In this document: piece by piece, positions 18,170-56,290 of the stretch
Layout of the letters: every line of letters begins with the position of its first letter
How positions within the stretch are numbered: position 1 is the stretch's first letter
Origin: Mobula birostris
Taxonomy: Eukaryota
Direction of reading: 5' to 3'
DNA: 64,000 bases
Assembly (NCBI RefSeq): GCF_030028105.1
Contig: NC_092375.1
Coordinates: forward strand, 128,491,035-128,555,034
The notes under the pieces: generated by a model
What the model saw: only the letters and a program-made list of their open reading frames with translations
What the model was told of the DNA's origin: nothing
Databases searched by the model: none
Translations under genes and position numbers: made by a program

Positions 18170-18299
18170 AACAACAGAAATTCTGCAGATGCTGGAAATT
18201 CAAGCAACACACATCAAGGTTGCTGGTGAACGCAGCAGGCCAGGCAGCATCTCTAGGAAGAGGTACAGTCGACGTTTCAGGCCGAGATCCTTCATCGGG
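18170..18299 (-). mobile_element. Short Penelope-end-derived insertion (single arm, mutated hammerhead)
   Basis: Family consensus tctgcagatgctggaaattcaagcaacacac...; TSD acaatgtg at 18162 and 18300; core reads CCGATGA instead of CTGATGA. Confidence 0.75.
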
Positions 18300-19429
18300 A
18301 CAATGTGCTTCAGTATCAGGTTACAAGTGAGATGAACGCAATTCACTGCCTTTATAAAATGGCGAATAGTACAGGGGCTACTCGACAATAACATATATTC
18401 TGAAACATTATAATCCACTGTTGCTCAGCTAGCTGAGTTTGAACAGGAGTTTTACATTAATAATAAGCTTTCATGATACAGTGAAATTACCAACAGATAA
18501 CACAACAATCATCAGTAGACTGCTGCAATTGTCTGCATGGTTTTCGAGCCAAGAGATTAAAACGCATTCACATTTGACAATCAACTTGGGTGGGAGCAAT
18601 TCTAATGCACGGCCTCGACAGTGCAAAACTCCAGGAGCTGCCAGTAGAACCCCGCTACCTTTGCAAAATTACATATAGAATGACAATTTGCCACGGCAGT
18701 TTTAAAGATTCTAGTGTCACAAACTATTCAGAAAATTAGCTTCTATCAATAAAGCACTCCTCTCCAAAGACGATAAACAGAATCATTTCAAAAGGCAGTC
18801 ATTTGTAATGGGCCTAAACCTACACTAGTTACACTCCCATCCGAAAGTGAGAAACTACAGCTTGGAAGGACTGAATTACCTGCTTCGAGTTTACCAAGTT
18901 AGTAATATAAAATGTGTTCATCTACAGGCCGTGAAGGCGGGGAGAAGGACGGTTGTGGCATTTTTACCATGTGCATTTTTTTGACAAATGTACTTCACCT
19001 GCTTTTATTTTGACTTTATTCAGAACCTGTTATGATTGCCTTCAGAAAATATACACGTGTATAAGGAGTACGTGATGCAACTCTTGCTCACCGCCAGTAA
19101 CGCTCTTCCAGCAAACCCAGCTAGCACTGACAGTTGTATGTTTTATAAACGGATTTGGAATTACGTAGAGTGCGGGAGGAGGTGGCGGGGTGGGGGTGGG
19201 GGATGAAAATTAAGTTTCTAATGTGCAGGTGAAGATCTTCAAACTAAATTCAGTCTTTGATAGGGCGAATGCATATTTAGGTGGGACCCCAGTACATTCA
19301 TTTCCTTTACAGTGTTCACGGAAGCCCCTCACCATTAAAAATAACAAACTCTTGACAAGCTGCCCTCCCCCGGGAGAAACTGACACCATGCAAGTTGTAA
19401 CATTAAAGCAATATTGGAAACTACCAGCA

Positions 19430-19900
19430 AGCGAGCTGGAAATCCTATTCGGCCTTCGCTCAAGTCTTGCAATCAATTCCCACACACCCTGCCCCCGGGT
19501 TTAAACTGAGCCCCCCTCTCTCTCTGCCTCCCCCTCCCCTTACCGTGCATTTCGAGCGCGCTGAATGTGCTTCCACCCTTACGGTCAGAGTTCAGCCTCG
19601 GCCCCCACTACTTCCTGGCCACCTTTAAAGGGGCTGGGCTGCATTTCTGGCCGCCGACGCCAAAGCTCGGCCGCGCCCACCGTTAAAGGGATCGCCGAGC
19701 AGCGTCTTCCGTCGCCTCTGAGGGGAGGAAATTGAATCCTTCAGATGAGAGGGAGGGCCGTCGAAACGAAAAGAAAGAAGGTGTTGATGGAAGGAAGGAC
19801 AGCGAACGCTGCGAGCGCCCAGGCCAGTATGCAACTATGGAGAGTGCCCCGGTTCTTAGAGCTGAACACTTTCGGAGTCTCCATGGGGTAATTGTTAAAA
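19430..19900 (-). promoter_or_regulatory. CpG-rich promoter / first exon of an unidentified minus-strand gene
   Basis: Local CpG/GC enrichment in unique sequence; minus-strand donors CACG|GTAAGG (exon end 19544) and GACC|GTAAGG (19583). Confidence 0.55.
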
Positions 19901-20629
19901 AAGTGGTTCCCCCTGGGAATGTTCAAACTCCATATCAAAGCATGCAAGCCGGTTTGGAAAACCTGGGGCTCTACTCTCAGCCCGCTAGAAGTCCAAACAG
20001 TGGGGGGAGTAAGTGGAAATACGAAGCGAGCACCGCAGTTAACTCACACCCCTTGTTCTTTCAGTCTCACTACTGCAGAGTACTAACACACCTAAACACT
20101 ATTCTTTCAAAACAGAATTATTACTTTTGTTCTTTGGTACAGCACGCTTGTAACTGTCAAACGCATGACGTTTGGTGTTGGATAATTGTGAAAGAATAAA
20201 AACGTTTATTTTTAAATACTGATACTGATCCTTCTAAAGAATATGTAAGATTGGAGCATCAGAACAATACGAATTATCTAATATATTAGGTTTATATTAT
20301 TGGCTGTATTTCAATTCTTGTTCTGGGTAGCAAAGTAATTCCTCATTTCGGAGGCTAATAGTCTACCCAGTTTAAACCTAGGTGCTTGACTTTTTAAAAA
20401 AAAAATTGAATTCTCAAAATTAAAGAATAGTTTATGATTATTGAAGAATAACTGACAAAACACTGGGACCATCAACCCTACTTTCCCATTGTCAAAAAGC
20501 AAATGGAACATTTTATGGTACTTTTAAACGCAAACAACAGGAATTCTGCAGATGCTGGAAATTCAAGCAACACACATCAAAGTTGCTGGAGAACACAGCA
20601 GGCCAGGCAGCATCTGTAGGAAGAGGTGC

Positions 20630-20665
20630 AGTCGACGTTTCAGGCTGAGACCCTTCGTCAGGACT
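20630..20665 (-). ncRNA. Minimal type I hammerhead ribozyme motif
   Basis: AGTC-CTGACGA-AGG(GTCTCAG)CCT-GAAA-CGTC-GACT on the minus strand. Confidence 0.75.
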
Positions 20666-20705
20666 AACTGAACTTTCAAGTCCCTTACTCACTCTTCCTT
20701 CAGTT

Positions 20706-20741
20706 AGTCCTGACGAAGGGTCTCAGCCTGAAACGTCGACT
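20706..20741 (+). ncRNA. Minimal type I hammerhead ribozyme motif
   Basis: AGTC-CTGACGA-AGG(GTCTCAG)CCT-GAAA-CGTC-GACT on the plus strand. Confidence 0.75.
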
Positions 20742-21029
20742 GCACCTCTTCCTACAGATGCTGCCTGGCCTGCTGCGTTCTCCAGCAACTTTGATGTGTG
20801 TTGCTTGCTTGATTTTATGGTACTGATGGAGTTTGCCAACTGCTCTCATTAATAGCAAGACTACTTTTTCTATCACTGTCTTGACAAGAACAGTCAACCA
20901 ACATCATTATTTCATATTCAATAGGTTCCCTGCCATCATTATTTCACGGATAACCGTATTTCCTTTATAAACAAAAAGGCTTGGCAGAAGATTGCCGGAG
21001 TTGGTAAAATTACATTTTCCTCAGAAGAT

Positions 21030-53769: not shown

Positions 53770-53846
53770 CCTGTAGCTGCCTGTGCTATGCCAGTAATGA
53801 AGGGGTGGAATATCCTTACTAACTCAGAAAAAACCAAGAAAGCCAG
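53770..53846 (+). CDS. NDUFS1: NDUFS1 exon 5
   Basis: PVAACAMPVMKGWNILTNSEKTKKA(R), AG/GT, 77 nt. Confidence 0.97.
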
Positions 53847-54189
53847 GTAAAGTAAGGTGAAATCTCCATGTTGTATGAATGTGCCTTTTACGTGCTGCAT
53901 GTTCACCCTTTGGTTGTAATCTACAGTGATTATAATTTAATAAAATAATTAAAAGACTAAGGGAAATGAAAAAGATTTCACTATATTTAATTAAATAAAA
54001 GATCATAAACATGGATTGAAAGGTGTAAGTAGAATATGTTCCAAGTGTCGTTTAAACCAGAGCCTAAACATTCAGATGCTCTATTTGTTTTTGTAATATT
54101 CATTGTTTAATTAAGTAATGAATGTTGGTAATCCCTGTATTGTGTATTCTGTATACTGATGCTATGCTTCATTTCTATTTTGTGCAAAG

Positions 54190-54271
54190 GGAGGGTGTGA
54201 TGGAATTTCTGCTGGCCAATCACCCATTGGACTGTCCCATCTGTGACCAGGGAGGAGAATGTGATCTTCAG
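54190..54271 (+). CDS. NDUFS1: NDUFS1 exon 6
   Basis: [27 protein letters not shown] (N5 cluster HxxxCxxCxxxxxC), 82 nt. Confidence 0.97.
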
Positions 54272-54468
54272 GTACCACTGATAGTAACAAATGCCAAAGG
54301 TTTTGACGCCAGGAGTAAAGGTTTAGCAAGATAAAGGTGATGCTGTTTCAGATTTAGATTTATTTATTACAGGGCTTACAGTGAAATGCATCATTTGCAT
54401 TGACCAATGCACCAAGGATGTGCTGCGAGCAGCCCACAAATATTGCCACAAATTCCATTGCCAACATA

Positions 54469-54954
54469 CGAGGGGTGACTGATAATTTCGTGGCCTAAGG
54501 TAGAAGGAGTCAATTTTAGAAAACCTGGCACATTTATTTTTCAACACAGTCCCCTCCTACATGTACACACTTAGTCCAGTGGTCGTGGAGCATATGGACC
54601 CCTCCTTTGTAGAAGTGGTCCACAGCAGGGATGATTAATAAGTTCGTGGCCTAAGATAGAAGGAGGTGAGTTATACAGCTCTCGTTACATGCACGTGCAG
54701 TTCAACTCTTTGAGTGAAAATGCAGAAAGTTTGAAGTTTCTCCTCATTTCCTTCTACCTTAGGCCACAAATTTATCAATCAGCGCTGCTGTGGACCACTT
54801 CTGGAGGTCCAAGACACCGACTTCTACAAAGAAGGGATCCGTATGCTCCACAACCGCTGGACTAAGAGTGTAAATGTAGGAAAAAATAAATGTGCTAGGT
54901 TTTCTAACATCGACTCCTTCTACCTTGGGCCACAAACTTATCAATCACCCCTGG
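54469..54954. mobile_element. Mariner-type MITE with nested inverted repeats
   Basis: TA|CGAGGGGTGA...GTGGCCTAAGGTAGAAGGAG mirrored at the right end |TA; the TIR motif recurs internally at ~54630 and ~54750. Confidence 0.75.
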
Positions 54955-56151
54955 TAGCATGCCTGCAACGTTGAACAGAACAACATAAGCAGCAGTAACA
55001 ACAACAGCAAATGAAGCCCCTTTCCCTCCTCCCGGTAACCTCCTCACACCTGATATTGCATTGATATTCAATGCCAAGGGCCACTTGTGTAAATGAGCTC
55101 CAGATCTCTTTAAACTGAGGTGAATCTGGCAATGGAGCAAAGCCCAGAAGTCAAACTGAATCCCCTGTAATTGAGCAGGGTTCACAAACATTCCGGTTGT
55201 GCTTTCCTTTAAGTCATTAAAAAATAGTGAGGTGTGTGTTAAAAATACAGAAGTACAAAGTAAAAACCAAATGTGCTGAAAATTAAGAAAACATTTCCTT
55301 CAAAGAAGTGAAATGCTTAGTTTAATAATATAAAATCTAGTCTGACTCAATGAAAGGTTTATTAATGGATTTCCTGTGCTACCTGTTACTTATGAGTTAC
55401 AACATAGTGAAACAGTGCGTCAGGCTGCAGTAAGAGGTATCTCTAGTTTCTTTGCAGTTCACATCTGCTTATTATTTGACCTCTTCTCATTTCAGGATGT
55501 ATATTTTATGCACTTCTCTGACATTAAATGTACCTTTGAAACCTTCTCGGGAGGAGTGCAGCAAATAACCTTCCAGTGTTTGTATGACTGAGTGTTGCAA
55601 ATAAGCATGCCTTGTACAATTAGCACTGATTCATGTGCTGTTAGTTGGTTAGGTGAAATACTGTAGTGATCCTCATATGTATTAATCTGATCCGAAAATA
55701 TGACATCAGAGTGAAATAGTGTTCACATTACAAAAAGTTGCATGGATGAGACTTTGGTTCTGTGGAAGATTTGTGGGTAACCAGGATGAGGTGTTGAATT
55801 GGTTTTTAATAAGGTATAAAAGGAAGCTGCTGCAAAAGGGGAAAAAAAAAGAGCAAGGAACACAACCTTAAAATTGAAGCTTGGCCAGTCAACGTTGGTT
55901 CAGTAGCAATTCACACACAAAAGTTGGAACTCTGTCCACCAGATCACCTTCCTGCTATCGTACCTTCCCCTAAAAAATTGAAGTTGGTTTCTTTAAAAAA
56001 GTTACAGCAGGGTATTAATGTTAAGTGAAGATATTAAGAGTAACACTATTCAGAATAGTATTTAGAGAGTTGAGGTACCAATATGATATTCAGAGTTGAG
56101 GTACCAATCTGGTGCAATCTAAGTGGTAGAAAGACCTAATCTTCTTGCAGT

Positions 56152-56290
56152 CAACAGGAATTCTGCAGATGCTGGAAATTCAAGCAACACACATCAAAGT
56201 TGCTGGTGAACGCAGCAGGCCAGGCAGCATCTCTGCAGAGATGCTGCCTGGCCTGCTGCGTTCACCAGCAACTTTGATGTGTGTTGCTTG
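56152..56290. mobile_element. Fold-back Penelope-end element forming a perfect 110-bp palindrome
   Basis: 56181-56290 is self-complementary with no spacer; 10-bp TSD ttcttgcagt at 56142 and 56291. Confidence 0.85.

Follow-up and report, generated by a model that had tools for sequence, protein, structure and literature searches.

Short, mostly fold-back inserts in a Mobula birostris locus are end-truncated copies of an abundant Penelope-like element with a preferred stop site

The window analysed here is a 64,000-nucleotide stretch of Mobula birostris DNA (assembly GCF_030028105.1, contig NC_092375.1, positions 128,491,035 to 128,555,034 of the forward strand). It carries seven short related inserts, which are the shortest, end-truncated copies of an abundant 3.7-kb Penelope-like element (PLE). 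Element positions follow the antisense arm of L209, a natural long copy, and position 1 corresponds to window 20533; reverse transcription would proceed from low to high numbers. On this scale, terminus A lies at about 1, terminus B at 27-48, and the hammerhead at 97-134, with its predicted cut at 102|101. The arms of the seven inserts were 88-100% identical to the natural long copy. Exact flanking repeats, taken as target-site duplications (TSDs), were present at all seven (8, 13, 9, 14, 11, 13, and 10 bp in window order), which confirmed the initial annotation in treating each insert as a separate event with its own repeat of 8-14 bp.

Three inserts are single arms. Insert 18170-18299 (minus strand, 130 bp, TSD 8 bp) is a tailed arm from terminus A covering positions 1 to about 130-132. 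Insert 21738-21847 (minus strand, 110 bp, TSD 9 bp) is a tailed arm reaching position 101, the predicted cut site, followed by a 10-nt filler, which may consist of two tiny sense pieces, each beginning at position 133. Insert 22321-22383 (plus strand, 63 bp, TSD 14 bp) is a tail-less arm of positions 98 to 35 that has only terminus B and no hammerhead. The other four have a fold-back layout and mixed strands. In 20523-20811 (289 bp, TSD 13 bp), a tailed arm from -9 to 140 is joined head-to-head with a tail-less arm from 168 to 32; 22562-22699 (138 bp, TSD 11 bp) consists of a short tailed arm to 44 and a tail-less arm from 126 to 39; 31424-31592 (169 bp, TSD 13 bp) consists of a tail-less arm to 101-104 and a tailed arm from 96 to 1; and 56152-56290 (139 bp, TSD 10 bp), which has no hammerhead, is a near-perfect hairpin with a tailed arm from 3 to about 85 and a tail-less arm from about 85 to 32. 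The shared terminus of the initial annotation thus exists, but on six inserts (in 31424 on the minus strand) rather than five; likewise several inserts fold back at differing points, as it stated, but the turn point is not freely variable and has a sharp upper edge near 133.

A minimal type-I hammerhead was located in insert 20523 at 20705-20742 on the plus strand (stem I, 20705-20709 with 20738-20742; core, 20710-20737; predicted cut, 20737|20738), with a mirror copy at 20666-20629 on the minus strand. The hammerhead ascribed to the arm in general was found with an intact core (CUGANGA...GAAA...UH) in this one insert of the seven, in both of its arms; the core is mutated in 18170 and cut short in 22562, and the remaining four inserts end before it. 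Rfam left the hammerhead unmatched, giving just sub-threshold matches to microRNA (miRNA) hairpins, and its minimum-free-energy folds were no better than those of shuffled sequences (z -0.6 to -1.1). As far as the PLE hammerheads are described in PMC4209133, they likewise have a short helix I and a palindromic helix III and occur singly or in close opposite-strand pairs, whereas helix II of the predicted motif here is short (3-4 bp).

The window is rich in these inserts, seven in 64 kb exceeding the sampled genome average: at 18 per 700 kb, 1.6 would be expected (Poisson P = 0.0016). A related organism, with a flank difference of 1.4-1.9%, has contigs that span both junctions of 18170 and of 20523; both insertions are therefore older than that split, and the family can be called young only in a relative sense. 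No empty site or insertion polymorphism was seen for the window inserts among the joints listed, beside which there were 2,629 further joints. The raw DNA runs X21 and X22 yielded 2 reads and 0 reads, respectively, from this stretch.

In most of the 30 best genome matches, the arm extends into an open reading frame (ORF) ending in a GIY-YIG domain. The 3.7-kb unit is present in its entirety at two near full-length loci, L209 and L210, with the reverse transcriptase (RT)/GIY-YIG ORF joined to the arm terminus; this is the parent element. L210 is arranged as a partial tandem, whereas L209 carries an inverted arm and is bounded by a 14-bp TSD in which one base is mismatched. The tail is the beginning of the next unit. 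The parent ORF of about 1,085 codons is interrupted in these two copies; another locus, L119, keeps 736 open codons. Pfam matches on the ORF were RVT_1 (E = 1.4e-6; 28.6 bits, slightly below the cut-off of 29.6) and, at the C-terminus, GIY-YIG (PF01541; E = 2.3e-4; 21.8 bits, slightly below the cut-off of 22.6); a PDB sequence search with the ORF gave no match. With RT in a single ORF, a C-terminal GIY-YIG domain, a partial-tandem, inverted, and tailed layout, and a minimal hammerhead in the pseudo-long terminal repeat (pseudo-LTR), the element almost certainly belongs to the endonuclease-bearing (EN+) PLEs. A CxxC/Cys-rich linker lies ahead of the endonuclease in L102 and L119; such a linker is given as a feature of the Neptune/Nematis clade (PMC8557442) and points to a place for the parent near it. 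Within the proline-rich N-terminal part of the ORF, a 212-nt tandem duplication (L209:5380-5804) is present in some copies and absent from others. The remnant at 50500-52450 (minus strand), whose end the initial annotation had matched to the arm, shares only 73% identity with the insert family across 85 nt, and 70-76% within the ORF; it thus represents a related but older Penelope-like family and not the parent.

Exact searches of the genome returned 23,579 and 5,929 matches for two tail variants and 97 for the junction of the tail with the 5' ORF. From 18 young inserts in seventy 10-kb stretches taken at fixed steps, we estimated about 100,000 copies genome-wide, or 1.7% of bases. The sample consisted of 88 loci out of the first 100 matches in one of these searches, the first 30 matches in another, the 70 fixed-step stretches, and the window; loci obtained with a query spanning a fold centre were biased and were excluded from every count. 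Two loci, one mis-anchored and one at an edge, were left out of the TSD count. Of the 116 tail-anchored loci counted, 79 had a TSD: 54 of the 58 in which a second arm was recognised, and 25 of the other 58. Control windows displaced by 150 nt, some of which ran off the locus, had none. The TSDs were 8-18 bp long with a mode of 14 bp, 65% A+T, and free of any motif; TSDs thus recur over the other copies with no fixed length. Sizes were continuous from 76 to 2,939 bp, and 54 of the 79 TSD-bounded inserts were no longer than 300 bp. The outer ends of the arms clustered at 1-10 and 26-48, the tail being about 31 nt. At L286, L278, and L294, at least three re-copied pieces per insert were observed, some with an internal repeat of target sequence.

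The inner ends of the arms were far from evenly distributed. They fell at 120-137 in 67 of 233 arms, against 8.25 expected from the background rate, with the mode at position 133 (window 20706; 11 arms against 0.4 expected), and past 137 the rate dropped back. The pile was also seen among the arms of the unselected fixed-step stretches, 9 of 25, and among copies in which no second arm was recognised, 13 of 58 of which ended at 118-137. Among 30 near full-length loci reaching the 5' ORF, the upstream boundary lay at 123-134 in seven, at 19-116 in ten, and beyond 190 in 13, and five of their 11 internal template jumps, two of them one common jump, departed from 133-134. Re-copied pieces come after 132-133 in L140, L145, and L053. 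Joints on 132-133 in contigs of public runs (3 of 15 and 4 of 15 among those listed) lend weak support, because the contigs probably represent genomic copies already counted. Hammerhead stem I has its 5' edge at position 133, and the surroundings of this base match the initiator consensus YYA(+1)NWYY. We consider it likely, judging from the DNA copies, that position 133 is the RNA 5' end, i.e., the transcription start, and that the arms run off there. Separately, a stub of an older family at window 1-100 was also seen to stop at position 132.

Taken as a whole, the shortest insertions are likely to result from a double cut, double priming, and frequent run-off. The enzyme of the element likely cuts both DNA strands about 14 bp apart; each cut end would then prime reverse transcription at one of two neighbouring RNA start sites, and many copies would end by running off the RNA 5' end. 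Short arms may arise when priming takes place within the pseudo-LTR at the 5' end of the RNA, as strong-stop-like complementary DNA (cDNA) of up to 133 nt, and the two cDNA ends would presumably be united by end-joining, the hammerhead having perhaps cut a small share of the templates. That a tail-less single-arm insert with a TSD exists (22321) indicates that terminus B is a priming site itself, as in vitro (PMC11167929). For the inverted ends and the one-sided tail of PLEs, one paper has proposed self-priming (PMC3846280), and an in vitro study found two start sites (PMC11167929). About 100,000 copies in one genome form a large natural data set on this question; the data point to priming from both cut ends and single out base 133 as a candidate RNA start and one bond as a candidate hammerhead cut. 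The initial annotation was thus borne out in its Penelope origin, independent target-primed insertion, fixed end, and worth as a mechanistic record, and what makes the material valuable is its stop-site edge, the indications of two priming events, and the sharing of junctions between neighbours described below.

As one of its two explanations, the initial annotation had suggested fold-back priming. Under this view, a single cDNA would double back along its own strand, or an antisense template would prime itself, as has been proposed for a rotifer Penelope (PMC3846280), and subsequent centre deletions would shift the turn point. The junctions of 58 inverted copies overlap by 1-6 nt in 31, are blunt in one, and contain 1-45 nt of filler in 26. 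The lengths of the two arms co-vary (both are short in 39 copies and both long in 12, with 7 mixed; P = 5e-7), which fits fold-back and also our own explanation. Fold-back would further fit the greater likeness of the two arms than of random copies, and two rare variants common to both arms of 20523. However, 25 of the 58 copies have a tail-less arm that exceeds the tailed one in length, against 20 with the reverse, the tail-less single arm of 22321 exists, and at eight non-CpG subfamily sites the arms of the same insert disagree in 35 of 181 comparisons (19%) against a background difference of 2.6%, where copy-back would predict about 97% agreement. This disagreement favours two priming events, and at face value about 40% of the arm pairs come from different templates. 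We accordingly hold double priming of the two cut ends to be probable and simple fold-back improbable, although fold-back followed by centre deletion may account for the remaining pairs. Several points weigh against our explanation. Arm disagreements could have been produced by later gene conversion, and agreement within inserts (146 of 181, 81%) exceeds that between inserts (58%), so that many arm pairs could come from one template. The sample represents mostly 15 Mb of one chromosome and was chosen by an exact tail. The RNA start at 133 is inferred from DNA copies, the RNA-like runs being contigs whose RNA status is a guess. About 55% of the arms reaching 120 go past 137, which, with the 13 near full-length loci beyond 190, indicates that read-through templates are used too. 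In addition, position 133 lies just inside a polypyrimidine-CAG/TAG stretch resembling a 3' splice site, and in Drosophila Penelope it is at the 5' end of helix I of the hammerhead that the intron stops (PMC4209133), so that a stall there is possible. An internal promoter with a start site upstream of an intron has been described (PMC2377424). With the same element and double priming, the pile at 133 would then reflect RT stalling on a longer RNA at splicing factors or structure. A branch-point-like motif, a pyrimidine tract, and CAG/TAG directly upstream of 133 fit such a stall, as do the many arms extending past 137, but no copy has a constant upstream exon after 133, none of the 15 joints listed has GT..AG ends, the predicted fold has no stem opening at 133, and re-copying and jumps after 133 fit a physical template end. 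A stall is thus rather unlikely as the cause, and splicing at 131 or 135 was rejected on the same exon and joint results.

The other explanation proposed initially, a non-autonomous hammerhead-processed hairpin short interspersed nuclear element (SINE) or retrozyme family mobilised in trans, draws on the hammerhead in the arm and on a minor pile of inner ends at 95-105 (20 against 6.8 expected), five of them exactly at the cut site 101 (0.62 expected); a short tandem unit shared by L241 and L242 could also be read as donor and daughter. Yet at least one of these five, the end in L206, is readable as a microhomology skip, and because microhomology in the palindrome accounts for part of the pile, cleavage in vivo of a small share of the templates is only hinted at. 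The expectation that turn points pile mainly at the cut site was rejected, the main pile lying 32 nt further on, and cleavage was dispensable in vitro in the system of PMC11167929. Two or more head-to-tail units, each with a complete hammerhead, as in retrozymes, occur in none of the seven inserts; six lack an intact core, and the single insert with one is head-to-head. A SINE would be a fixed unit with diagnostic sequence from masters, but the size continuum extends to near full-length copies, short and long copies carry the same subfamily variants, and each of five tested junctions occurs 1-2 times genome-wide, so that no master copy spread widely. Such a family is accordingly very improbable. 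Inverted arms with TSDs also recall a miniature inverted-repeat transposable element (MITE) or foldback element derived from a DNA transposon, an origin whose probability is negligible: the TSD range and the size continuum rule out a MITE and reveal no fixed SINE unit, the ends are asymmetric, the arms are the end of an RT-encoding element, and half of the copies are one-armed. Hairpin-shaped Penelope stubs are thus easily confused with MITEs, SINEs, and miRNA precursors.

The layout itself is already known, and the element is an additional example of it. EN+ PLEs are described with an inverted 5'-truncated copy and a one-sided tail of 30-40 bp (PMC8557442; Pen2a_Av in PMC3846280), and they share with our element the partial tandems, adjacent inverted copy, tail (here about 31 nt), TSD, heavy 5' truncation, and RT with GIY-YIG. 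Here, by contrast, about two-thirds of the TSD-bounded copies are at most 300 bp and there is a preferred end site; junctions shared between neighbours are undescribed in the accessible parts of PMC8557442 and PMC3846280. In the Anolis Poseidon element PAc, two adjacent internal RT start sites bound the tail, and both strands are cut and extended (PMC11167929). Our element resembles PAc in its two probable start sites, the likely cutting of both strands, a hammerhead upstream of the starts, and AT-rich targets, but probably belongs to a different clade, and the ATT motif was not seen in its TSDs; in its accessible part, the PAc paper maps start sites rather than genomic stops and has no reads at the cut site. 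Non-LTR retrozymes are presented as head-to-tail tandems with a hammerhead per unit, derived from pseudo-LTRs (bioRxiv 10.64898/2026.07.22.740005); pseudo-LTR origin and a type-I hammerhead are common to both, whereas in the window the copies occur singly or head-to-head, and most are without the motif. The priming of both target ends and microhomology at the inversion junction are also features of twin priming in the long interspersed nuclear element LINE-1 (L1). Twin priming was reportedly introduced by Ostertag and Kazazian in 2001. L1 pieces, as far as they are described, do not overlap, whereas in our element the two arms cover one and the same region, each from its own fixed start; L1 ends can be extended on different RNAs (bioRxiv 10.1101/2024.12.14.628481).

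Identical junctions recur more often in neighbouring inserts than in inserts far apart. In a set of 114 distinct head-to-head junctions, with one duplicated locus dropped, 6 of 758 pairs less than 1.5 Mb apart were identical against 4 of 5,682 more distant pairs (P = 3.6e-4; 11-fold), and all four distant matches lay at hot-spot or microhomology positions. Three of the near junctions, with an overlap of at most 1 nt or a common filler, had exactly two exact matches in 4 Gb, 156, 604, and 640 kb apart and with different TSDs. These siblings are L143/L146 (G000:C1:3.94 and 4.10 Mb), L185/L190 (G000:C1:7.80 and 8.44 Mb), and L187/L191 (G000:C1:7.86 and 8.46 Mb); further same-junction pairs with different TSDs are L184/L193, L160/L161, and L186/L197. 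One sibling pair is reciprocal, with the tail on opposite arms. Two control junctions, including that of 20523, matched once each in the genome, in an exact-pattern search that would overlook perhaps half of the mutated copies; no sibling junction was found for 20523 by this search or for 56152 by a loose one. Widely spread master hairpins were rejected as the source, given two matches for each junction, and L273/L274 and L019/L023 were rejected as siblings, their identical flanks marking duplications. The flanks of L143 and L146 contain LINE-like sequence, presumably of the CR1 type, at nearby positions in that repeat.

Siblings differ by 2.9%, close to the 2.7% between their own arms and below the 4.8% of random pairs, also far from the junction, and non-sibling neighbours are no more alike than random pairs. 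Likeness throughout favours a common origin of the whole insert. Differences at subfamily sites in both sibling arms (84 in L185/L190; 250, 377, 394, and 482 in L187/L191), on the other hand, favour either the repair of mismatched hairpins or conversion between copies that arose independently. As the cause, gene conversion or junction borrowing has about an even chance; twin insertion is less probable, and local re-copying less so again. It is conceivable, though doubtful, that PLEs often insert as local twins, one intermediate or nascent hairpin RNA giving two inserts within about 1 Mb, with the tiny copies as strong-stop-like cDNAs that mark the RNA start; at least 10 of the 44 inverted copies in the densest sample would tentatively count as having a same-junction sibling. 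If true, twin insertion would be an undescribed Penelope integration step and a fossil record of germ-line chromatin proximity. Local junction sharing is in any case unexplained, and a full PLE model must account for it. L241 and L242 (G000:C1:23.59 and 24.80 Mb) have an internal jump from 134 to -68 in common, with different TSDs and inverted junctions, and may be related as donor and daughter through a short tandem unit; the same place is reached from position 98 in L173. A preferred stop site or junctions common to neighbouring Penelope copies were not found in the literature searched, in which subscription journals are poorly covered.

The window also contains older Penelope-like stubs of the same architecture at 1-100, 10436-10557, 24322-24468, and 34560-34618, and other, unrelated inverted-repeat elements at 5517-6104 and 54467-54956, with arms of 119 and 75 nt lying 340-350 nt apart. 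Two SNORD51-like C/D small nucleolar RNAs were detected at 34029-34100 and 34639-34715 on the minus strand (sub-threshold Rfam matches of 39.7 and 36.2 bits, the gathering score being 50), flanked by exons that we take to encode elongation factor 1-beta. A CpG island spans 37000-39000. An exon with a Pfam Fer4_Nqo3 domain lies at about 61040-61190 on the plus strand and is presumably NDUFS1-like; insert 56152 probably sits in an intron of this gene.

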